Position numbers and translations under genes: made by a program
The notes under the pieces: model-generated
What the model was told of the DNA's origin: nothing
The model's database searches: none
What the model saw: the letters and a program-made list of their open reading frames with translations, nothing else
From: Candidatus Azambacteria bacterium
Lineage (GTDB): Bacteria > Patescibacteriota > Minisyncoccia > UBA10092
DNA length: 44,828 bases
Assembly: GCA_030646675.1 (NCBI GenBank)
Contig: JAUSKX010000006.1
Span: 1 to 44,828, forward strand
Reading direction: 5' to 3'
Shown here: piece after piece, positions 4,669 through 15,029 of the stretch
How the letters are laid out: every line of letters begins with the position of its first letter
How positions within the stretch are numbered: the first letter of the stretch is position 1

Positions 4669-6525
4669 ATGAACTTTTTTAAAAATAAGTTTCTTATCGG
4701 TGTTTTTGTTTTATTTATAACTATCTATTTTCTATCGGCTCCGATAGCGCGAGCCGAAGACGCTTTGTCTTTCTTAACCGGCGGGGCGTCTGATCTTATT
4801 AACGCTACGATTGATGTTTTGTCGGGAAGCATATCAGTATTTCCGATGCTTTTTGCGATAGGCGACCCAACTGCTTTTATAATTTGCTCCACAAGCACCG
4901 TGTTTTGTCCTAATGGGTCAGGCGGGTTAGCGCTAGCACCGGTAGCTACCGGGTCATCAGCAAGTGGCGCTTGTGTTTATGGAATCCCCACAACCTTCTA
5001 TGATTGGCAAATGAATACCGCGTATGGATATGCGGATTTTAATTATTATAACGGGACATACGACAGTGAAGGCACCGCTCTCTCTGTAAGCGCCGGGTCC
5101 AGTCCGCACTATAGCAATAGCGCCTGCACTAATGTCATGCCAAACCCGTATTCCCCGGCTAGCCCTATTACATACGCCCAAGTGCCAGGCGTGGGATGCG
5201 TGGCTATTTATCCGCAAGGTTATCCGCAATCTTTTCCGTATACGTATGATTCAAACCAGCAGGTGAAAATTTATCGCTACACCTTGCCGGCCCCCAGTGA
5301 CCAAGCTACATTGAACACCTGGTTTCTAAGCACTATAAGGGCGAATGGAGGTACCGGTTGGGAAACGTCAAGCGGCGACATTCCGACTTTTCTTAGTGAC
5401 CCATCCGATGCGGGGTTAGATTATTATCTTAATTCTCCTGAACCGACACCGCTAGCCACAGTGCCTTTCAGTACTTTATGCTCGGGAAATGTTTGCAAGT
5501 TTACTGACGCCACAGCGCCGGAGAATTCATATGTGGCATATACGGCTAAGGTTTCCGGGAATTACTCATTTGCTTTCAATAAGTATTATCCTTGCGGGTC
5601 TGAAGATTACAACTGCTACGATACCGTGTTTTTTACAAAAGAAAATAAATTCTTAAACACGGATAACGCGCCTAATACTGCTACATTTCCATATTCCACA
5701 TTAGGCAATGCTATTACCGGGCCGTATCAGACCGGCGCTTGTCCGCCTGCTACTGAATCACCTGCCTCTGATGTTCCGGCGACTCCTGCGACTCCTGCGA
5801 CTCCTGCGGTCCCTATTAACGGCGGATGGTCTGATTGGAGCGCATGGGGTGGATGTTCAGCTTCGTGCAATCAAACAAGAACCAGAATCTGCGCGAATCC
5901 GGCTCCGGCTAATGGAGGCGCAGATTGCTCCGGTTCCAGTACGGAGACTCGAACTTGCTCCGGCGGAGCCTGTATCCCAGCCCCCGGCAATTTTAATGTA
6001 TTTCCAGGCGGCCCTGCCTTGCCTAACTCAGTTTTCTTATCTTGGACCGCTTCCGACAATGCCACAGCCTACAGAATCTTAAGAGGTTCTCCGAGAGTAG
6101 ATATTACTCCATATCAATCATATCCGGCCCTGAATTATTCCGACACCACGGTGGACCAAAATACCAGTTACGTATATCAAATTGAAGCGTATAACAGCGC
6201 CGGAACCCAACGTTCCAATCTTATAAACATAACAACTCCGTTCCGCTCACCGACAATCAGCCTTTCCGCTTATCCAACTTCCACCTATCAGAATCAAATA
6301 GTTACTCTGACATGGACGACAACTGATGCTACTTATTGCTCCGCCTCGGATGCTTGGAGCGGGTCTAAACCGGTAAACGGAAGCGGAATTGTTCATCCAG
6401 CGTCTATACCAACAACATCTTATACCCTGTCTTGTTCCGGACCGGGCGGGACAACCGTTCAATCGGTGGCGGTTAATGTTACTCTTTTAGCTTTGCCCGA
6501 TTGGAGAGAAATAATTCCGAGGTAG
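4669..6525 (+). CDS. Secreted multidomain surface protein with a thrombospondin type 1 repeat, an FN3-like domain and an Ig-like domain
   Basis: Signal peptide, then a PATPATPATPAVP linker. TSR signature WSDWSAWGGCSASCNQTRTRICANPAPANGGADCSGSSTETRTCSGGAC. FN3-like segment follows (FLSWTASDNATAYRILRG...YVYQIEAYN). Confidence 0.7.
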   Translation: MNFFKNKFLIGVFVLFITIYFLSAPIARAEDALSFLTGGASDLINATIDVLSGSISVFPMLFAIGDPTAFIICSTSTVFCPNGSGGLALAPVATGSSASGACVYGIPTTFYDWQMNTAYGYADFNYYNGTYDSEGTALSVSAGSSPHYSNSACTNVMPNPYSPASPITYAQVPGVGCVAIYPQGYPQSFPYTYDSNQQVKIYRYTLPAPSDQATLNTWFLSTIRANGGTGWETSSGDIPTFLSDPSDAGLDYYLNSPEPTPLATVPFSTLCSGNVCKFTDATAPENSYVAYTAKVSGNYSFAFNKYYPCGSEDYNCYDTVFFTKENKFLNTDNAPNTATFPYSTLGNAITGPYQTGACPPATESPASDVPATPATPATPAVPINGGWSDWSAWGGCSASCNQTRTRICANPAPANGGADCSGSSTETRTCSGGACIPAPGNFNVFPGGPALPNSVFLSWTASDNATAYRILRGSPRVDITPYQSYPALNYSDTTVDQNTSYVYQIEAYNSAGTQRSNLINITTPFRSPTISLSAYPTSTYQNQIVTLTWTTTDATYCSASDAWSGSKPVNGSGIVHPASIPTTSYTLSCSGPGGTTVQSVAVNVTLLALPDWREIIPR

Positions 6526-6527
6526 TC

Positions 6528-7166
6528 ATGAGTTTGCCTGTCACAATCCATGGACATAATAAGACGCATAAATATTTGCTTTTGTGGGAGCAATATTTTC
6601 AAAACAACCAATCATTATTTCAGCTGGTTGTTATTGAGATGAAAAAACTAATTGGAATAGCGAATTTTACGATTTCCAAAATTCCAATTTATCTTGTTCC
6701 CGATGCCAATAGCAAAGATAAAGAAATTAGCGCCAGTTTTTCTTGGACGCCAAAAAAAAGTTTTATCAATATTGAAATTCCGCTGGGTCTTGAAGTGCCC
6801 AATGGATTTTTTCCGATAAGTATTTTAGCGCATGAGTTTTTTCATTTGATGTTGAGAAAAAACAAGAGTTTATTTTTAGAAATAGAAAAAATTACTCAAG
6901 AAAATGAGAAATTATTTGTTAGGTTATCAAAGGGCATGCCGAGTAGAATGTTTTTGGAAGAATTGCTGGTTAGTTCATTTATTCCGGAAGGATATCTTAG
7001 CGAAAAATACTTGAATACAAAGTCTCCTGTTGCTATTTCGAATCCCAAAGATTTGTTATCGTGGCGAAAACTAGTTGCGTTTAAATCGCGTGAAATGGCA
7101 AAAAATTATATCGACAATATTCAACAAATCGATAAAAAGTATTTGGAACATATAGTAGATATATGA
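6528..7166 (+). CDS. HExxH-motif protein 1 (putative zinc metallopeptidase)
   Basis: ATG at 6528 lies 2 nt after the upstream stop, with GAGG upstream. Motif ILAHEFFHLM. Its stop overlaps the start of the Cys-rich peptide gene (ATGA). Confidence 0.55.
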   Translation: MSLPVTIHGHNKTHKYLLLWEQYFQNNQSLFQLVVIEMKKLIGIANFTISKIPIYLVPDANSKDKEISASFSWTPKKSFINIEIPLGLEVPNGFFPISILAHEFFHLMLRKNKSLFLEIEKITQENEKLFVRLSKGMPSRMFLEELLVSSFIPEGYLSEKYLNTKSPVAISNPKDLLSWRKLVAFKSREMAKNYIDNIQQIDKKYLEHIVDI

Positions 7167-7306
7167 ATAAATCGGAGATTCTCATTATCCCCGATGCGGG
7201 AACACGCGCGAAGATCGCAGAAAAGATAGACCTAGATGACGCTGTTAGCGCACCGCCCTGCGACTGCACAGCGTGCGGTTCCTGCAGATGTACGCCATGC
7301 AAGTAG
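7163..7306 (+). CDS. 47-aa Cys-rich peptide, candidate RiPP precursor (absent from the ORF track)
   Basis: Hand translation gives MNKSEILIIPDAGTRAKIAEKIDLDDAVSAPPCDCTACGSCRCTPCK*. Six Cys fall in the last 15 residues. ATGA start/stop overlap with the upstream gene. A radical SAM/SPASM gene lies about 0.9 kb away. Confidence 0.6.
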   Translation: MNKSEILIIPDAGTRAKIAEKIDLDDAVSAPPCDCTACGSCRCTPCK

Positions 7307-7426
7307 CATGGCAACTCTGAGACCCGAGCATGTCTCTAATAAACTGCTTTTTCTTTTTTAAAATTTCTTAAATATCTTGTCGTCAAGCCGAAAATTTGAT
7401 AATATTTATTTGTAAACATCGAAAAT

Positions 7427-8131
7427 ATGAAGAATCTTCGCTTCTATTTCAATAAAAAACTTGATGCGTTAATGGTTGAGGAATTTCTTAAGGTAAGTGG
7501 AGGAGGAATAGACTTTGGTCAAAATATTTTTAAAATACATCCGCAGTTGAAATCGGTTAAATTATTAAACTTCCAACAGAGAAAAAAAACAATCAATGCT
7601 TACTTTAATAATTACTACCGAACCCATAAGGCAGTAATGCGATGCAGAATTAAGAACATACGAGACGCTTGGCCCAAGCACGAACGTGAATTTGTTGCCA
7701 TAACCGAGGATTTTTTCGGTAGTTTTCGGTTTCCCAGAGGAAAATATATTGCCTACGCTTCTATTCTTAATTGTAACCCGCGATTTTTGGACTTAAAAAC
7801 ATTCCAGTTTTTTTATGAAAAACCACTAGCCGATGCTATTTATACCATTGCTCACGAGCTTCTTCATTTTATTTTTTATGATTTTATTGAAAAGAAATTA
7901 AAAAAAGAGGTAAAACATTTATCAGAAGATCAATTATGGGACCTTTCAGAGATATTCAACGTTGTCGTTCTTGGGTCTCCGCGATACTGCCGTATTATCA
8001 ATCAAAAATTTGTGATTCCTTATCCCGATCATCGACGCTATATTAGTCAGTTTGAAAAAGCATATAAGAATTCCAAAAATGCCAAAGAATTTATTAGACG
8101 TGGCATAACTATCATAAGTGCAAAAAAATAG
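7427..8131 (+). CDS. HExxH-motif protein 2 (putative zinc metallopeptidase, same architecture as 6528-7166)
   Basis: 234 aa with motif TIAHELLHFIF. Has its own promoter-like sequence (ttgtcg...tgataat) upstream. Confidence 0.5.
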   Translation: MKNLRFYFNKKLDALMVEEFLKVSGGGIDFGQNIFKIHPQLKSVKLLNFQQRKKTINAYFNNYYRTHKAVMRCRIKNIRDAWPKHEREFVAITEDFFGSFRFPRGKYIAYASILNCNPRFLDLKTFQFFYEKPLADAIYTIAHELLHFIFYDFIEKKLKKEVKHLSEDQLWDLSEIFNVVVLGSPRYCRIINQKFVIPYPDHRRYISQFEKAYKNSKNAKEFIRRGITIISAKK

Positions 8132-8156
8132 CGGGAGAAGATTATTCTCCTCCCGC
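8121..8156 (-). terminator. Terminator hairpin between convergent genes
   Basis: Stem gcgggagaag / ctcctcccgc (8131-8156) with a T-run on the minus strand, downstream of the radical SAM stop. Confidence 0.6.
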
Positions 8157-8164
8157 ATGGTTCG

Positions 8165-9550
8165 CTATTTGTTTGCGGTTTGCCTTTCTTTTTGTTTTTC
8201 CCACAAGTCGCGTATTAAAAAGTGGGTTGTCGCTTTTGCGTGAACACAAAATCGCTCATCAAGAGCATAGATAGTTCCCTTTGTTCGGTAGGCGTTGTAT
8301 GGACAACCTCCGCCGCAATTACCTAGAGCGACGCAACTTCTACATACCTTGTTGGCGAGCGGCGAGCGTTTTCTCCACTGTTTCCAGAACGGATGAGATT
8401 CCGGCTCGAATGTTTCAAGTGGTTCTGTGACGAAAAACTCTTTTCTGCCGCAGAAAGCCTGACAGACGCCAATTTTGCCATCCGGACTCACCACAATCTG
8501 AAGCCCGCAACCGCCGCAGTCACTCAGCACAGGCGTTTTGTCAAGAAAATTCTTGACCCGCCGCATCATGCGATCTTCGTAGATGCCGGCCGCTCGCGCC
8601 ATTTTGAAGCTCTCAATGAGTTTTTGAGCGACAATTTCTCCATATTGAGTCTTTTCACCGCTGACGATGGGATCGACTTCATTTTCAATGAGAATGTTAA
8701 ACCCCATTCCTTTAGCTCCCAGTTCATCTGCAAGCCACCGCACGATTTCTTTCATTCGGAAAAGATTATGCCGATCGATGGTTACGCAGATGCCAGTTTT
8801 AACTCCCATCTGTTGCGCGAGCCGATATGAGCGCATTACTTCGTCGAACGTTCCTTTTCCAGAAGAGTAGACACGCATTTGGTCATGGATTTCCTTTGGT
8901 CCATCGACAGAAATCGCGACCACTACTTCAGTTGCTTTGCACTGAGTGAGAATTTCTTTATCAAGGAGAATCCCGTTCGTGTTTACTGTAATCGGGAGTT
9001 TTCCGGGAAGAAGCTTCTTTGCTTTCAATCTATCAATGTACTGGAGCACTTCAAGAAGTACTTCTTTGTTGAGAGTCGGTTCTCCACCATAAATCACGAT
9101 GTGTTGCTCGGGGTGACCTTTCGTGATGCTCCTTTTTACACAATGGGTGAAAAGGTCCAGCGCCTTAATTGCGGTTTCTTTTTTCATCAGAGAAGATTGG
9201 TAACCGTGAGGCATAGGGGCCAAGAAGTAGCAGTATCGGCAACGGATGTTGCAGGCATCGGAAAGTAGCAGATAAAGGATGTTGATTGCTGGTTCATCAA
9301 GTGCCTTCTGATATTCCCGATATAATTCATAGCCGTCGGCTCGCTCCTTAATGAGGAGTCCGAGCCCTTCCAGTTGTTCGAGTATACGCTCTGAAGTGGC
9401 GTCAGAACTGATGAACACTTGCTCCTGTTGGTATTGCTTTATAAAATCCTTTTTCAAAAACGCGACTTCCAGATTTAGGCTGTTATAGAGAGCAATATAC
9501 TCGTCATCAACGGAGATTACGTGCAAGAACGGGCTTTGTTCAAACTTCAT
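8165..9550 (-). CDS. Radical SAM/SPASM-domain peptide maturase-like enzyme 1
   Basis: CxxxCxxC cluster motif (CNIRCRYC). C-terminal SPASM-type Cys clusters (CGGCGLQIVVSPDGKIGVC...CRSCVALGNCGGGCPYN). About 100-aa N-terminal extension before the SAM motif. I prefer the ATG at 9550 (AAGGAG 9 nt upstream) over the track's TTG at 9649. Confidence 0.85.
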   Translation of the reverse strand: MKFEQSPFLHVISVDDEYIALYNSLNLEVAFLKKDFIKQYQQEQVFISSDATSERILEQLEGLGLLIKERADGYELYREYQKALDEPAINILYLLLSDACNIRCRYCYFLAPMPHGYQSSLMKKETAIKALDLFTHCVKRSITKGHPEQHIVIYGGEPTLNKEVLLEVLQYIDRLKAKKLLPGKLPITVNTNGILLDKEILTQCKATEVVVAISVDGPKEIHDQMRVYSSGKGTFDEVMRSYRLAQQMGVKTGICVTIDRHNLFRMKEIVRWLADELGAKGMGFNILIENEVDPIVSGEKTQYGEIVAQKLIESFKMARAAGIYEDRMMRRVKNFLDKTPVLSDCGGCGLQIVVSPDGKIGVCQAFCGRKEFFVTEPLETFEPESHPFWKQWRKRSPLANKVCRSCVALGNCGGGCPYNAYRTKGTIYALDERFCVHAKATTHFLIRDLWEKQKERQTANK

Positions 9551-9726
9551 GTGTCTCATCTCCTTTCGATTGTAAAAGTGCTTGATTTTGAGAAACTCGC
9601 TGGGAGTTTCTTTGGCGCCTAGGATAACATAGTTTACCAATTGGCGCAAGGATTTGGTATTGGTGTGGGCGCTGGAAGAATCGGACTTCCACTCTTCTCA
9701 AACATTTTATCCAAAGTGATTATGTT

Positions 9727-10398
9727 CTAATTAAAATTATGACTCGACTCAAAAATTCCCTTGGCCCAACCTGAGATTTTTAAAAATAATTCCGTGCTGA
9801 GAACATAAGCATCAAAAGTTCCAAATGGTAAATTATCTTTTTTATTTTTGCTAGAGGGGTTCATTTTTCTGTATGTCTTAAAAAATTTATTAAGGGGAAT
9901 CCCGGATACCCCCGACCAGTATTCTTCTGCTTTTTTATAATCCAAATGTGGATGTATATGGATATAACCTCTAAATTTTTCTTCCGGTACATTACAAATT
10001 CTTCTAAAAAAGGTCATTATGATTCTTATCATTTCCGGGTCGCTATTAGAAAATCTTACCAATCCTCTTTGTGTTTTTCCTCCTTCAGCCCAATAAAGCA
10101 TAATTCCAATTAACCATAATTCTCTTTCAGACAGGTTTTTAATTTCTTTAGTGGCTGCATCTATAATAATTTGTCTTTTTGCACTCTCATTTCTAAGACG
10201 AGTTGTTCTTCTTTGTTCTATTATGCCTTTTTGAATGCCCTTTTGAGAAAGCTCTAATTTCTGCTCTGGCGTTAGCCTAATATTCCCAACCCACAAACTA
10301 ACAGAGCTTTTAGCAACGCCCAACTTTTTGTGAATTTCATTAAAAGAATGGCCAAGAGAACGTAATCGTCTGGCCTCTAATTTTTCTTTTAATCTCAT
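9727..10398 (-). CDS. HTH-domain protein with a LAGLIDADG-like homing-endonuclease-like C-terminal region
   Basis: N-terminal HTH (LGHSFNEIHKKLGVAKSSVSLWV). Motif LIGIMLYWAEGGK resembles a LAGLIDADG-type core. Stand-alone gene among tRNA genes. Confidence 0.35.
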   Translation of the reverse strand: MRLKEKLEARRLRSLGHSFNEIHKKLGVAKSSVSLWVGNIRLTPEQKLELSQKGIQKGIIEQRRTTRLRNESAKRQIIIDAATKEIKNLSERELWLIGIMLYWAEGGKTQRGLVRFSNSDPEMIRIIMTFFRRICNVPEEKFRGYIHIHPHLDYKKAEEYWSGVSGIPLNKFFKTYRKMNPSSKNKKDNLPFGTFDAYVLSTELFLKISGWAKGIFESSHNFN

Positions 10399-10458
10399 AA
10401 TTGAACCTTTAAGTATATTACTACAATAAGCATACTCTAAAAGTTCAATTATTTCTAG

Positions 10459-10531
10459 TGGGTGGTATAGGATTCGAACCTATAACCCCTGCGATGTAAA
10501 CGCAGTGCTCTGGCCGTTGAGCTAACCACCC
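10459..10531 (-). tRNA. tRNA-Val(UAC)
   Basis: 73-nt cloverleaf with acceptor GGGTGGT/ACCACCC, anticodon loop TTTACAT and T-loop TTCGAAT. Confidence 0.9.
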
Positions 10532-10543
10532 TAAAAGATAATC

Positions 10544-10927
10544 CTAGTTTAGCATGATATTTTTGATATGCTCAACTTGAGCATTTTTTGTTTCAAAATC
10601 TAATTTGAGCGCCAAAACATCTATCCGCCAATCTTGGCTTTCAGAGATTCTATGTTCCTTTAAATATGTTGCAACTATTTTTGATAATTGCCGTTTCTTG
10701 TGGAACCCAACATTTTCTTCCGGCCGCCATTCAAAATTTATATTTTGCGCTTTGACTTCAATAAAAATTAATTCTTGTATTTGACCAGTCGTCTCTCGCG
10801 CAACAATATCAATCTCTCCCCATGGCTTGCGGTAATTTCTTTCTACAATTTCATACCCGTGTTTTTCCAGATATTTTACCGCAATATCTTCTCCCAATTT
10901 ACCGGTATCTTGTTTTTTAGTTGTCAT
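10544..10927 (-). CDS. yraN: YraN family endonuclease (UPF0102)
   Basis: 127 aa with the family pattern GKLGEDIAVKYLEKHGYEIVERNYR...GEIDIVA...LIFIEVKA. Confidence 0.8.
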   Translation of the reverse strand: MTTKKQDTGKLGEDIAVKYLEKHGYEIVERNYRKPWGEIDIVARETTGQIQELIFIEVKAQNINFEWRPEENVGFHKKRQLSKIVATYLKEHRISESQDWRIDVLALKLDFETKNAQVEHIKNIMLN

Positions 10928-12744: not shown

Positions 12745-14133
12745 ATGAAAATTAATCGAAAGATTCCATTAATTAAATCGCAATTTGTTCAAGTAATCAA
12801 AAATAATAGTAAAACCATAATCTGGCACTCGCTTTTTGGGAATCCCAAAATCGTTTCAAAAGATACTATAGCGTTGCTCAATATTTTTTCTAATTCGCGC
12901 TCTCTATCTTCTGTCCTGGGCGAATATAATATTGGAGAAAATGGCATAGAAGTCATTCAAGACTTAATTGCAAGCCACTATTTAATTCCCAAAAATTTTG
13001 ACGAGAGAAAATTTCTCGCTAAACGCATGCAAGAGCGCGAAGAGTCTATTACCAGTGGATCGCTCATTGATTATCTTGAGCTTATCATGTCTGAAGCATG
13101 TAATTTTCGTTGCATATATTGTATTCACTTCAACAATCTTGGAATAACTGACCGGATAAAAAATCCGAAGAAATTCATGACCTTTAAAATTGCGAAAGAA
13201 GCGGTAGATCAGTATCTAAAGATTTTACAACGACATGGGAAAAATGTGGCAAGTATAAACTTCGGCGGAGGCGAGCCCCTTCTCGTGTGGTCGGTAATAG
13301 AGCAAGTGATTAAATACTGTATTTCCCACTATAGTCATGATTTCGTATTTCGATTCTCAATCAACACGAACGCTTCTTTGATTACGGCTGATATTGCCAG
13401 AAAACTCAAAGAATATCGTGTGGAAATTGCGTCGAGTCTTGATGGTCTTCGTGATGGAAACAATCAAGTTCGGCTTACGAAATCCGGTGGCGGAACCTTT
13501 AGGGCCATAATGCGAGGATTTGATAATCTTGCGGAACAAGGTCACCCACTGAAAGGCATTGCCATTACAGTAAATGAAAAAAACTTCCCGTTTCTTGACG
13601 AGAAAATCATTAACTGGGCTTCTAATCGACAGATGCAAGAAGTTCGAATTGATATTGATGTTATTGGCATGGTTGAAATACCAGTCGATGATATTGTCGA
13701 GAAATTAATGAGAATACGGCAATACGCTAAAAGTCGCGAAATTGAGGTCGCCGGTTTTTGGTCCCGGCCGGCTGAAAATCTTAATGATTTGACACTGAAT
13801 ACGCATATAGCATTCTGCGGAGCGGTTCGCGGCAATAGTATATGTGTAAATCCTTCCGGTGATATATACGGATGCGGTTACAGCACTAAACAGCTTGGAA
13901 CGCTTCATCAAATTGAATCATTCTATGTTCCTGGGAGCCGATACCATCTTTTTGTGAAAGACCATCTGACTGGAGCAATTGAAATGTGTAAAGGATGTAT
14001 AATTGAAGGACAATGCGGCGGAGGATGTAATATTACACAAGAATTCGCTCGCGCAACCAAGACTGTAAAAATCAAACGAATGTGCGCTTTTTATCGTAAA
14101 ATGACGCGAAAACTTCTTCTCGAACAAATTTAA
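12745..14133 (+). CDS. Radical SAM/SPASM-domain peptide maturase-like enzyme 2 (paralog of 8165-9550)
   Basis: 462 aa with CNFRCIYC cluster motif, GGGEPLL, and C-terminal SPASM Cys clusters (CGAVRGNSICVNPSGDIYGC...CKGCIIEGQCGGGCNIT). About 118-aa N-terminal extension. Confidence 0.85.
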   Translation: MKINRKIPLIKSQFVQVIKNNSKTIIWHSLFGNPKIVSKDTIALLNIFSNSRSLSSVLGEYNIGENGIEVIQDLIASHYLIPKNFDERKFLAKRMQEREESITSGSLIDYLELIMSEACNFRCIYCIHFNNLGITDRIKNPKKFMTFKIAKEAVDQYLKILQRHGKNVASINFGGGEPLLVWSVIEQVIKYCISHYSHDFVFRFSINTNASLITADIARKLKEYRVEIASSLDGLRDGNNQVRLTKSGGGTFRAIMRGFDNLAEQGHPLKGIAITVNEKNFPFLDEKIINWASNRQMQEVRIDIDVIGMVEIPVDDIVEKLMRIRQYAKSREIEVAGFWSRPAENLNDLTLNTHIAFCGAVRGNSICVNPSGDIYGCGYSTKQLGTLHQIESFYVPGSRYHLFVKDHLTGAIEMCKGCIIEGQCGGGCNITQEFARATKTVKIKRMCAFYRKMTRKLLLEQI

Positions 14134-14145
14134 AGAAAGGAGGTA

Positions 14146-14253
14146 ATGGCTATGAAAAAGACGCGGTCTAGCAAGCAGCTGAATCTGGCAATAAAGCCCC
14201 TTCCCAAGCGGAAAGTGCTCAATACTTGCCAGGCGCCCAGCAACTGCCACTAA
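14146..14253 (+). CDS. 35-aa peptide, candidate RiPP precursor (absent from the ORF track)
   Basis: Hand translation gives MAMKKTRSSKQLNLAIKPLPKRKVLNTCQAPSNCH*. AGGAGG at 14138-14143. The second ATG at 14152 has better SD spacing and would give 33 aa. Starts 13 nt after the radical SAM stop. Confidence 0.55.
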   Translation: MAMKKTRSSKQLNLAIKPLPKRKVLNTCQAPSNCH

Positions 14254-14312
14254 CATGGTGGCTTTACAGGGCTAAGGGAAAATGTTATAATTCCTTTAGC
14301 CCTGTTTTATTT

Positions 14313-15029
14313 ATGAATAAATTTGTTCAAAAAATCTGCAGTAGTATAGTAGAACAATATAAACAAGACAAAAATGTCTTGGGGGTTATGTTGTTCGGGT
14401 CTGCGGCAAGAAATAAATTTGATCAATATTCCGACATAGATATTTATATTTTACTGAATAAAAAGGGCAAATTTTCAAGGATTAATTTTATAAAAAATGG
14501 AATACGCGTTGATATCATTTTGAATACAATAGCGGAGGCAAAGGAGTATCTCAAAAAAGATAAAAATGCATTGAAAAGAATAACCTCGCACATGATAGCT
14601 TGTGGCGTAATTCTTTTTCAGAGAAGAAAAGTTTTAAAGAAAATTCAATCTGTTGCAAAGAATAATTTGCAATTAAAAACTAAATATAAGAGTAGTGAAG
14701 TTTTGATGCACAAATATTCCATAGATGATTTTTGGGGGGAAGTTCAACGAGATGCACAAAATGAAGATTATTTAGCTTTTAATTTAGATAGTCATTTATT
14801 AGTGAATAATATTATAGAATTATTCCTTAAGTTGAATGGAAAATTCTTAAAACAACCAAATGAAATGTTTGGACTACTCAATAAGCTGGATAGTAATTTC
14901 TGTAGTATTCTAAAAAATTTTTATATAGCAAATAGCATTGATCAGAAAAAAGATATATTAGAAAAACTTGTAAATTATATTTACAAAAAATCGGGCGGCT
15001 CATTGCCTCAACGATGGAAAGTTCTTTAA
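14313..15029 (+). CDS. Nucleotidyltransferase (Pol-beta superfamily, KNTase-like with helical C-terminal domain)
   Basis: Motifs LFGSAARN...DIDIYILL (GS...DxD). I prefer the ATG at 14313. The track's upstream extension overlaps the peptide gene. Confidence 0.7.
   Translation: MNKFVQKICSSIVEQYKQDKNVLGVMLFGSAARNKFDQYSDIDIYILLNKKGKFSRINFIKNGIRVDIILNTIAEAKEYLKKDKNALKRITSHMIACGVILFQRRKVLKKIQSVAKNNLQLKTKYKSSEVLMHKYSIDDFWGEVQRDAQNEDYLAFNLDSHLLVNNIIELFLKLNGKFLKQPNEMFGLLNKLDSNFCSILKNFYIANSIDQKKDILEKLVNYIYKKSGGSLPQRWKVL

Follow-up and report, generated by a model that had tools for sequence, protein, structure and literature searches.

The window analysed here is a 44.8-kb stretch of DNA from Candidatus Azambacteria (contig JAUSKX010000006.1, forward-strand positions 1 to 44,828). 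Between positions 7163 and 9717 it carries three genes, which encode a 47-residue Cys-rich peptide, a zincin-like protein here called HExxH2 and, convergent with these two, a radical S-adenosylmethionine (rSAM) enzyme with a SPASM-type C-terminal part, here called rSAM1 (Table 1). A preliminary description made from the sequence alone had proposed at this place a ranthipeptide-like locus for a peptide that is made by the ribosome and modified after translation (RiPP), in which two HExxH proteins accompany the peptide and the enzyme. The window is Patescibacterial in look, with 17 scattered tRNA genes, and its nearest contigs are metagenome-assembled genomes (MAGs) of Patescibacteria/Parcubacteria. 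For comparison, a search anchored on rSAM1 provided 20 loci from reference genomes and a search anchored on the peptide only provided 63 metagenomic loci, which are cited by number (L002 and so on) where they have to be told apart. Partner genes were counted by lineage, with a minimum flank set for each question (400 nucleotides (nt) or 2.3 kb downstream; 1 kb upstream).

Table 1. Features of the peptide cassette and of its left-hand boundary gene in the window
Feature	Position	Strand	Description
Whole cassette in this genome	7163-9717		Delimited by loss and resumption of homology against the syntenic contig L021
Precursor peptide gene	7163-7306	+	47 amino acids; stop codon 7304-7306; open reading frame read, homologues in 67 loci
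Precursor leader	7163-7258	+	Residues 1-32; conserved hhhhP motif (ILIIP), NA[RK]P-type junction
Precursor core	7259-7303	+	Residues 33-47, CDCTACGSCRCTPCK
HExxH2	7427-8131	+	234-residue cytoplasmic zincin-like protein, candidate leader peptidase; HELLH at residues 143-147
Bidirectional intrinsic terminator hairpin	8131-8156		Terminator scan; -17.3 kcal/mol, z = -3.1; common to both convergent units
rSAM1	8165-9550	-	461-residue radical SAM/SPASM peptide maturase; PF04055, TIGR04136 best model, CteB best structure
rSAM1 SPASM cysteines C345-C435	8246-8518	-	Invariant Cys columns
rSAM1 CxxxCxxC	9230-9253	-	C100-x3-C104-x2-C107
rSAM1 N-terminal peptide-recognition-like domain	~9287-9550	-	Residues 1 to ~88
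rSAM1 promoter and 5' untranslated region	9551-9649	-	Surviving arm of the inverted repeat
rSAM1 Shine-Dalgarno AAGGAG	~9558-9563	-	
rSAM1 conserved box TCAAAATCAAGCACTTTTACAA	9570-9591	-	In the 5' untranslated region
rSAM1 hairpin GAAACTC-N5-GAGTTTC	~9591-9611	-	In the 5' untranslated region
rSAM1 extended -10 TGTTATCCT	~9621-9629	-	
rSAM1 -35 TTGCGC	9644-9649	-	
HExxH1	6528-7166	+	Boundary gene outside the conserved cassette

The precursor peptide gene

The open reading frame (ORF) of the peptide translates as MNKSEILIIPDAGTRAKIAEKIDLDDAVSAPPCDCTACGSCRCTPCK, and a six-frame scan of the window found no second ORF that has six Cys among its final 25 residues. It was absent from the ORF track, and the preliminary description, which had picked it out by reading the strand, described it correctly. 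Its ATG shares bases with the TGA of the upstream gene HExxH1 (ATATGA). On the opposite strand an ORF of 77 residues, 7081-7314(-), is present as well, which had been taken for an antisense shadow. Selection was assessed as the Nei-Gojobori ratio of nonsynonymous to synonymous differences (pN/pS) in all six frames, using a gap-free alignment of 42 codons that extends from the leader hhhhP motif to the terminal CK, is available from 61 loci and comprises 43 distinct nucleotide versions. The sense frame gave a pN/pS of 0.30, as against 0.42-1.33 in the three antisense frames and 0.42-1.40 in the other five frames together. The antisense ORF behaves as a non-coding shadow by this test, which ruled out both a chance ORF and an antisense gene. 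Judged by its codon-level constraint, the 47-residue ORF is a genuine and strongly constrained gene.

The peptide is carried by 67 loci representing 45 distinct lineages, and its recurrence beside the same partner genes is far beyond chance. Constraint is unevenly distributed along the peptide, with a pN/pS of 0.30 for the whole, 0.44 for the leader and 0.075 for the core, and synonymous differences are close to saturation (pS 0.70-0.79). That the core has stayed nearly invariant although synonymous sites are saturated points to a function that is important and conserved. For the core, the consensus reads P-C-[DN]-C-[TS]-[AS]-C-[SGN]-S-C-R-C-T-P-C-K, in which the six Cys, which are the most invariant positions of the peptide, and S, R and P are invariant. 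This core is near-invariant across lineages whose rSAM1 proteins are 58-85% identical. In the leader, the Pro of the ILIIP motif is invariant and its distance to the first Cys is always 22 residues, while (N/D)ARP precedes the first Cys in most relatives of the window peptide.

The radical SAM enzyme

The real start of rSAM1 is the ATG at 9550, whose Met is shared by all homologues, and not the TTG at 9649 that opens the longer ORF 8165-9649. The convergent enzyme with CxxxCxxC and SPASM-type Cys is present as first described. An N-terminal extension of about 100 residues, of the size of a recognition element, had also been claimed; the domain exists and matches the recognition domain of CteB, but it measures about 90 residues from the ATG at 9550, rather than 100-125. 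There are 697 homologues of rSAM1, and the radical SAM domain PF04055 is matched with an E value of 8e-18. Among 20 homologues of 51-81% identity, C100, C104 and C107 are invariant. The SPASM set consists of C345xxC348-x9-G358-x4-C363-x3-C367, C403xxC406x5C412x3C416 and C435, and within it C348-x9-G358-x4-C363, C403xxC406x5C412x3C416 and C435 are all invariant in the same homologues. The Pfam scan did not report SPASM PF13186 for rSAM1 and gave no PqqD or RiPP recognition element (RRE) match in the N-terminal domain.

Maturase families were compared by the curated NCBIfam cutoffs, which are 400 bits for TIGR04136, 425 for TIGR03974, 340 for PapB (NF047865) and 349 for the anaerobic sulfatase-maturating enzyme anSME (TIGR03942). 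The top model is TIGR04136, named "FibroRumin system radical SAM peptide maturase", which aligns over the full length with 289.5 bits, below its cutoff; relatives of rSAM1 score 166-379 bits on it. It is followed by PapB (140.7 bits), SCIFF (135.4), CefB (131) and, in fifth place, anSME (119.6). All of these lie far under their cutoffs, and membership in the SCIFF, PapB, CefB and anSME families was ruled out on this account. Cyclophane and DynA models also exceed 100 bits. The solved structure nearest in sequence is CteB (5WGG; E 2e-29, vs 2e-16 for anSME). The AlphaFold model of rSAM1 has a predicted local distance difference test score (pLDDT) of 80 overall and above 90 at residues 1-85, a beta-strand/helix domain, and Foldseek superimposes it on CteB over 477 columns with template modelling (TM) scores of 0.71/0.74, the N-terminal peptide-recognition domain of CteB included. 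TigE (8VPO), ChlB (9GM3) and anSME are the next structural neighbours, and TigE and ChlB are almost as close as CteB. Sequence and modelled fold both mark rSAM1 not as a sulfatase maturase but as a SPASM enzyme that modifies peptides and has a probable recognition domain, in line with the preliminary description; its chemistry would most likely be thioether formation.

The zincin-like protein HExxH2

HExxH2, the second HExxH protein of the preliminary description, is likewise present. The 244 close homologues all carry the annotation "hypothetical protein" and have no Pfam domains, and a profile search of 1.8 billion cluster representatives extended the family to 716 members at E <=1e-3. No match was obtained in a search of annotated plasmids. 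In an alignment of 37 members that reaches down to 24% identity, the sole residues without exception are R119, H143, E144, H147 and E175, the spacing being HExxH-x27-E, and C116-N-P-R-F120 is also invariant within the subfamily of the window protein. An invariant HExxH combined with a distal Glu and an Arg is the signature of a catalytic zincin, in which the Glu is the likely third zinc ligand. Pfam matches are sub-threshold only and point to DUF3267 and DUF5700, which are "putative zincin peptidase" families, and NCBIfam returned no relevant match. The AlphaFold2 model of HExxH2 is of high confidence (pLDDT 94, predicted TM score 0.90); the list of non-significant fold matches has mostly M1 gluzincin aminopeptidases on top and includes the lanthipeptide peptidase EryP. 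Most economically, HExxH2 would probably serve as the leader peptidase and cut the conserved junction (N/D)A(R/K)P↓C. An exclusive RiPP association of the wider HExxH2 superfamily was also considered and is unsupported, the genomic contexts being mixed.

Linkage, gene order and decay of the cassette

In seven of the eight close rSAM1-anchored loci the peptide is present, and in the eighth the contig ends just upstream of the rSAM gene, where a same-strand peptide gene would sit. Forty lineages have at least 400 nt of sequence after the peptide, and in every one of them the next gene downstream belongs to the rSAM1 or HExxH2 family; the complete trio is found in 23 of the 30 lineages with at least 2.3 kb downstream. 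Two gene orders occur. In the window-type order (30 lineages) the peptide is followed by HExxH2 and a convergent rSAM1, and in the alternative order (11 lineages) rSAM1 lies directly downstream of the peptide on the same strand, followed by a convergent HExxH2; a peptide directly upstream of a same-strand rSAM1 is the classic precursor-maturase order. The expectation that peptide and rSAM would stay together in related genomes is thus confirmed by tight linkage over 45 lineages, a pattern that fits a RiPP precursor with its maturase. Since the flanking genes are otherwise unrelated between loci, peptide, HExxH2 and rSAM1 travel as a module. Conservation spans many lineages of Patescibacteria, from groundwater, sludge, digesters and sediments.

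The trio recurs at about 36% rSAM identity with other Cys-rich peptides (L009, L020, L084, L087 and L092). An HExxH2-like gene, then the peptide or peptides and then the rSAM gene follow each other on one strand in L009 and L020, while L084 and L087 have HExxH2-like and rSAM1-like genes with different Cys-rich peptides. In L092 and L093 an rSAM gene is followed by one for a 69-residue Cys-rich peptide; then come an rSAM1-like gene, which scores 379 bits on TIGR04136, a methyltransferase gene and one for an HExxH2-like protein. The first rSAM of this set (L092 650-4711) has 294 residues. In L022-L024 an HExxH2-like gene lies beside another Cys-peptide/rSAM pair, which in L022 (8326-10673) comprises a 50-residue peptide (…GRPCCGGSCIGGNCKAVPKIAAAFK) and a 305-residue rSAM enzyme, next to a 253-residue HECCH protein and an adjoining IS1595 transposase.

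Distant precursors, those of L084-L087, L009, L010 and L020, have an SC[TS]AC[GS]SCRCTPCK block or another Cys-rich core and in addition a C-terminal follower. The end of the follower shows a shared motif such as …VTRV, …MVR or …VNQVR in L084, L085, L086, L009, L010 and L020, and …NVITR in L087. Window-type peptides are without the follower; this difference suggests that it is another site for recognition or cleavage, or else that the longer form is ancestral. Archaeal relatives of rSAM1 from Micrarchaeota and other archaeal MAGs (L017 2589-4698, L018 890-2950, L019 6-2112) are 31-34% identical and 633-642 residues long, with additional sequence at the C-terminus. A peptide of 48-58 residues with 9-10 Cys (e.g., …SPCSCGTCDYCYCTCSDCGACGSSCAFCD) precedes each of them.

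Several lineages show rSAM1 in various stages of loss. In L027 a truncated rSAM1 abuts a same-strand ORF of 351 residues, and in L071 the gene is split by an inserted ORF of 528 residues. Only remnants are left in L032 and L036, and rSAM1 is absent from L034, L044, L049 and L070, with peptide and HExxH2 kept intact in all eight of these loci; L044 and L049 have also lost the normal stop codon of the peptide. Such decay is frequent. These loci are read as decaying cassettes, and they leave room for the possibility of an own function for the peptide-HExxH2 pair.

HExxH1 and the limits of the cassette

The start of HExxH1 is most likely the ATG at 6528, preceded by a GAGGT Shine-Dalgarno sequence. 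Its family has 150 homologues, mostly of 286-290 residues, and the window protein and its four closest relatives are shorter by about 75 N-terminal residues. HExxH1 has no Pfam family. The preliminary description had treated the two HExxH proteins as a pair, and this does not hold, as HExxH2 alone is the partner. BLASTP finds nothing between the two, and hhalign aligns only the zinc helix with 39% probability. A homologue of HExxH1 is found in none of the 20 rSAM1-anchored loci, and an HExxH1-like gene lies upstream of the peptide in only two of 27 lineages with at least 1 kb upstream, namely the window and L076. Together with the synteny breakpoints, these results ruled out HExxH1 as a member of the system or a paralogue of HExxH2, with the caveat that the L076 gene is 30% identical and that the family is elsewhere paired with another rSAM-peptide system.

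The breakpoints come from L021 (GCA_018826255.1), which is syntenic with the window over a thrombospondin type 1 (TSP1)-domain protein, HExxH1, a 223-residue protein and UPF0102. Blastn of the window against L021 gives homology at 6527-7162 and at 9718-10767, and none between. Homology that stops at 7162, one base before the peptide ATG, and resumes at 9718 delimits the cassette to 7163-9717 and places HExxH1 outside it. In L021 the slot between HExxH1 and the 223-residue gene holds a peptide of 55 residues ending GPWDDGHWANRK and a SPASM enzyme of 365 residues. The best models for the SPASM enzymes of L021 and L022 (338-365 residues) are anSME at 273 bits and, at 256 bits, DynA, the maturase of dynobactin, and the 55-residue peptide partner of the HExxH1 family ends in GPWDxGHWANRK (L021 3265-5258; L022 5001-7112). 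This pair is a candidate RiPP of Trp/His cross-link type in the same genomic slot as the window cassette. The HExxH1 family also adjoins the Trp/His-peptide/rSAM pair in L022-L024, and HExxH1 may belong to this system or may mark a cassette hot spot.

Directly upstream of HExxH1, at 4669-6525(+), the window encodes a 618-residue protein whose N-terminus has a hydrophobic, signal-like segment and which contains a thrombospondin type 1 repeat (PF00090, E 2e-6); this gene order is kept in L021. The repeat is an unusual eukaryote-like adhesion domain for a Patescibacterium.

Promoters, inverted repeats and terminator

Most loci have AAGGAGGT ahead of the peptide ATG. Many window-type loci have, on the peptide side, a sigma-70-like promoter (TTGCAT, 17 nt, TGCTATTTT) together with the hairpin and the conserved box listed for rSAM1 in Table 1, and the same promoter and 5' untranslated region (5'UTR) element recurs, inverted, upstream of rSAM1. 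Four of the nine predicted pairs of the hairpin show compensatory changes, and a search of Rfam gave no match to the 5'UTR. Intact cassettes are flanked by inverted repeats of 101-141 nt with 84-98% complementarity, as in L002 (517-657/3037-3177), L030 (1-123/2493-2615) and L031 (1-220/2597-2821). In L002 and L031 they are longer, at about 220-250 nt, and both ends of the L031 contig lie within the repeat. As promoter, 5'UTR hairpin and Shine-Dalgarno sequence are all present in each repeat, the peptide and the rSAM gene are under near-identical copies. Copies are more alike within a locus than between loci, suggesting concerted evolution.

The window keeps the rSAM1-side copy only, and the peptide side has been replaced by the 3' end of HExxH1. 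With the promoter and Shine-Dalgarno sequence gone from that side, the window peptide must either depend on read-through together with stop/start coupling or be expressed poorly; HExxH1 probably supplies both the read-through transcription and the ATGA coupling. The ATGA overlap, from which translational coupling had been proposed, is real. It sits, however, on the recombination junction, as the homology stop at 7162/7163 shows, and other loci have their own promoter, 5'UTR and strong Shine-Dalgarno sequence, so that the coupling to HExxH1 is a lineage-specific consequence and not a design feature. The outer ends of the inverted repeats were unsupported as a boundary in the window because the sequence beyond ~9660 is unalignable to the GC-rich outer repeat of L002 and L031. 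An attenuator hairpin between the peptide and HExxH2 was likewise unsupported (z = -0.24).

Proposed mechanism

Taken together, the segment 7163-9717 is read with moderate confidence as a self-contained three-gene RiPP cassette, in which rSAM1 cross-links the core and HExxH2 removes the leader. According to this proposal, the 47-residue precursor would be translated by read-through and coupling from HExxH1 in the window, and from a promoter and Shine-Dalgarno sequence of its own in most relatives. The hydrophobic-x4-Pro strand of the leader, 22 residues before the first Cys, would then bind the N-terminal recognition domain of rSAM1, whose radical SAM cluster and two SPASM auxiliary clusters would cross-link the six-Cys core. 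Thioethers from Cys sulfur to carbon onto D/N, T/S, S and T, giving ranthipeptide- or sactipeptide-type rings, would be the likeliest product. In known ranthipeptides the Cys sulfur is bonded to the beta or gamma carbon of a Thr, Asp or Asn residue (PMC8326336), and the conserved D/N, T/S, S and T of the core are by analogy plausible acceptors. Finally, the zinc-dependent HExxH2 would cut off the leader at (N/D)A(R/K)P↓C. Both convergent units would normally be driven from one promoter/5'UTR, present in inverted copies, and they share a strong bidirectional terminator. There is no exporter or immunity gene in the cassette, and this, together with the near-invariant core, suggests a signalling or intracellular role rather than that of a diversifying antibiotic. 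The conservation pattern resembles SCIFF-type conserved peptides more closely than diversifying bacteriocins.

Alternative explanations

Some observations speak against the cassette as proposed. Foldseek of HExxH2 against the PDB gave no significant match (best E 0.69, TM ~0.3), no protease family model is above threshold on it, and its remote relatives in L089 and L090 have no rSAM nearby. rSAM1 is below the curated cutoff of every named maturase family, and its second-best structural neighbour, TigE, is not known to be a thioether synthase, so that fold alone does not fix the reaction. L007 has peptide and rSAM1 but is without HExxH2, and five lineages that keep peptide and HExxH2 have rSAM1 lost or truncated. 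The window peptide itself has neither a promoter nor a Shine-Dalgarno sequence of its own, and its expression here is uncertain.

The alternative that survives best, which we consider possible at a low level of confidence, concerns HExxH2. The protein could serve in immunity or self-protection, as a second modifying or metal-handling enzyme or as a scaffold, and the leader could be removed by a housekeeping protease or kept. The missing fold match, the persistence of the peptide-HExxH2 pair without rSAM1 (L032, L034, L036, L044), the arrangement in L007 and the remote relatives that are not near any rSAM would all fit such a role, and the genuine FibroRumin locus and SCIFF loci do without such a protein. 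Nevertheless, the invariant HExxH, distal Glu and Arg make up a catalytic zincin signature, and the Pfam matches, weak as they are, fall on putative zincin peptidases. The junction between leader and core is conserved, HExxH2 is co-transcribed immediately after the peptide in 30 lineages, and rSAM-less loci show other decay, such as the lost peptide stop codon of L044 and L049. These points favour HExxH2 as leader peptidase.

It is also conceivable, though unlikely, that the cassette is a RiPP system whose rSAM1 makes something other than thioethers, for instance carbon-carbon cross-links, a cyclopropanation-type product, epimerisation or oxidation of Cys or Ser, with the Cys serving as metal or cluster ligands or forming disulfides. 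Against it, no positions of the peptide vary less than the six Cys, and the three named families with the highest scores all have Cys-rich substrates or are thioether-forming; CteB, the nearest neighbour by both structure and sequence, is a thioether synthase. In its favour are the scores of rSAM1 below the cutoff of all thioether-maturase models, the structural closeness of TigE and ChlB and the cyclophane and DynA models at above 100 bits. In addition, SCIFF peptides in vitro show a cross-link at one of six Cys only (PMC8326336).

An equally improbable explanation is that the copy in the window has recently been crippled or silenced, recombination having deleted the promoter, 5'UTR and Shine-Dalgarno sequence on the peptide side, so that little or no precursor is made. 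The peptide-side repeat arm is indeed missing, the ATG abuts the HExxH1 coding sequence without a Shine-Dalgarno sequence, HExxH1 is itself N-terminally shortened and rSAM1 is disrupted or missing in six of 30 lineages. All three ORFs are nevertheless intact in the window and keep every family-invariant residue, the ATGA overlap is a standard coupling arrangement, and the genes from 4669 to 8131 are all on the forward strand with short gaps, compatible with one operon.

An unmodified metallothionein-like metal binder with an incidental rSAM neighbourhood, an idea that the CxC and CxxC spacing and the lack of an exporter might suggest, is already disfavoured and highly improbable in view of the linkage to the rSAM1 family over 45 lineages, two gene orders and unrelated flanks, the same linkage in distant clades with different Cys-rich peptides, the conserved leader recognition motif at fixed spacing and the homology of the peptide to an rSAM-modified precursor family.

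Wider reading and a second peptide locus

The genomes of Patescibacteria, the candidate phyla radiation (CPR), are tiny, and next to no biosynthetic gene clusters (BGCs) are usually counted in them. In one survey their MAGs were without any BGCs (PMC11613949). As a precursor of this kind is too short for routine gene calling and the trio passes no curated threshold, such cassettes are probably invisible to standard annotation. More tentatively, and with doubt as to the whole, the cassette may be seen as an exchangeable, Patescibacteria-specific RiPP unit, bounded by promoter-bearing inverted repeats of 100-250 bp, swapped at a hot spot by HExxH1 and frequently lost. HExxH2 might then found a new group of RiPP-processing zinc enzymes, and the product might act in signalling or host interaction rather than as an antibiotic. 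Interchangeable rSAM-peptide cassettes do occupy one genomic site, and an unannotated zincin-like family of about 700 sequence clusters gains here its first genomic context and a testable function. If the chemistry is confirmed, FibroRumin/ranthipeptide-like RiPPs would extend into the CPR as a compact set of enzyme, substrate and protease.

A second untracked peptide gene is found in the window at 14146-14253(+), where a strong AAAGGAGGT Shine-Dalgarno sequence precedes a 35-residue peptide, MAMKKTRSSKQLNLAIKPLPKRKVLNTCQAPSNCH. It lies directly after another rSAM/SPASM gene, rSAM2 (12745-14133; PapB best model, 138 bits, below cutoff), and before a nucleotidyltransferase, the whole locus spanning 12745-15029. 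The three genes recur in L005 with their order unchanged, and the C-terminal 19 residues of the L005 peptide are identical at 16 of 19 positions (…LPKRKKLNTCQNPSNCH). The rSAM2 locus is thus probably another RiPP locus, separate and with two Cys in its peptide. That rSAM2 might be a further enzyme for the six-Cys peptide was ruled out, since it has its own candidate substrate and is linked to that peptide in one other locus only (L005).

Comparison with known systems

The enzyme rSAM1 shares with anSME the SPASM architecture, and anSME is a detectable neighbour in both structure and sequence. The anSME enzymes differ in having no N-terminal recognition domain, matches covering only residues 87-421 of rSAM1, and in the score of 119.6 bits vs 349; no sulfatase was noticed among the neighbouring genes scanned, and the partner of rSAM1 is the 47-residue peptide. 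HExxH2 can be compared with EryP, an M1-family lanthipeptide leader peptidase, with which it shares HExxH and a downstream Glu, and its gene directly follows the precursor gene. Unlike gluzincin leader peptidases, HExxH2 is a single domain of 234 residues with an extra invariant Arg and the subfamily motif CNPRF, and it lacks a significant match.

The SCIFF and other ranthipeptides (CteA-CteB, Tte1186a, freyrasin/PapB, NxxcA) resemble the window family in having six Cys in about 45 residues and an rSAM/SPASM maturase with an N-terminal recognition domain, a probable one in rSAM1; the SCIFF systems also share a minimal cassette without exporter and a highly conserved core. They differ in leader motif and Cys spacing, in the zincin partner of the window family and in their hosts, Clostridia vs Patescibacteria. 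No peptide matched the SCIFF precursor model (TIGR03973) at E up to 10, and rSAM1 stays at 135.4 bits vs a cutoff of 425 for SCIFF and at 140.7 vs 340 for PapB, which bears out the early caution that the peptide is not a clostridial SCIFF. The parallel drawn to SCIFF/ranthipeptides therefore stands in part, as a peptide maturase is present with CteB as its nearest structure, but the nearest curated family is FibroRumin, which the preliminary description did not mention. The literature found on ranthipeptides in Patescibacteria/CPR consists of generic BGC surveys only, and a literature search yielded no paper on FibroRumin, TIGR04135, TIGR04136 or the core motif CRCTPCK, FibroRumin having been defined computationally.

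FibroRumin (TIGR04135/TIGR04136) provides the best curated model for both rSAM1 and the peptide family. TIGR04135, "FibroRumin family radical SAM-modified Cys-rich RiPP", matches 17 of 30 family peptides weakly (best E 8.9e-6), below its curated cutoff of 45 bits; the L005 peptide reaches 20.8 bits, and the window peptide matches no curated model, TIGR04135 included. Both window proteins are below the curated cutoffs of 400 and 45 bits. A FibroRumin locus annotated by the Prokaryotic Genome Annotation Pipeline (PGAP) is found on the plasmid NZ_CP012551.1 of Campylobacter sp. RM16187 (L094 4682-8484). Its two tandem precursors of 55 residues have a C-terminal follower and at least seven Cys, and its maturase is 34% identical to rSAM1. 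Directly after the maturase and overlapping its stop comes a UvrA-like double ABC-ATPase protein of 698 residues, which may be an immunity or export-related partner, and there is no HExxH protein. The Campylobacter precursor (...AARCACVSCNSCTCACSCRK...) and the window peptide (...APPCDCTACGSCRCTPCK) share the spacing of the first five Cys, C-x-C-xx-C-xx-C-x-C, and A-R stands before the first Cys in Campylobacter, like the (N/D)ARP of most window-family relatives. A short leader with a Cys-rich core is common to both systems, and in window-family relatives the precursor also lies directly upstream of the maturase. The window family is set apart by a single 47-residue precursor ending in CK, by the HExxH2 partner, by its Patescibacterial distribution and by the inverted promoter repeats. 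The family is not described in the literature found and fails every curated membership threshold, while its general kind, a Cys-rich RiPP modified by an rSAM/SPASM enzyme, is known. Enzyme and substrate each point independently to FibroRumin, which is therefore the nearest known system, neither of the two being a member.

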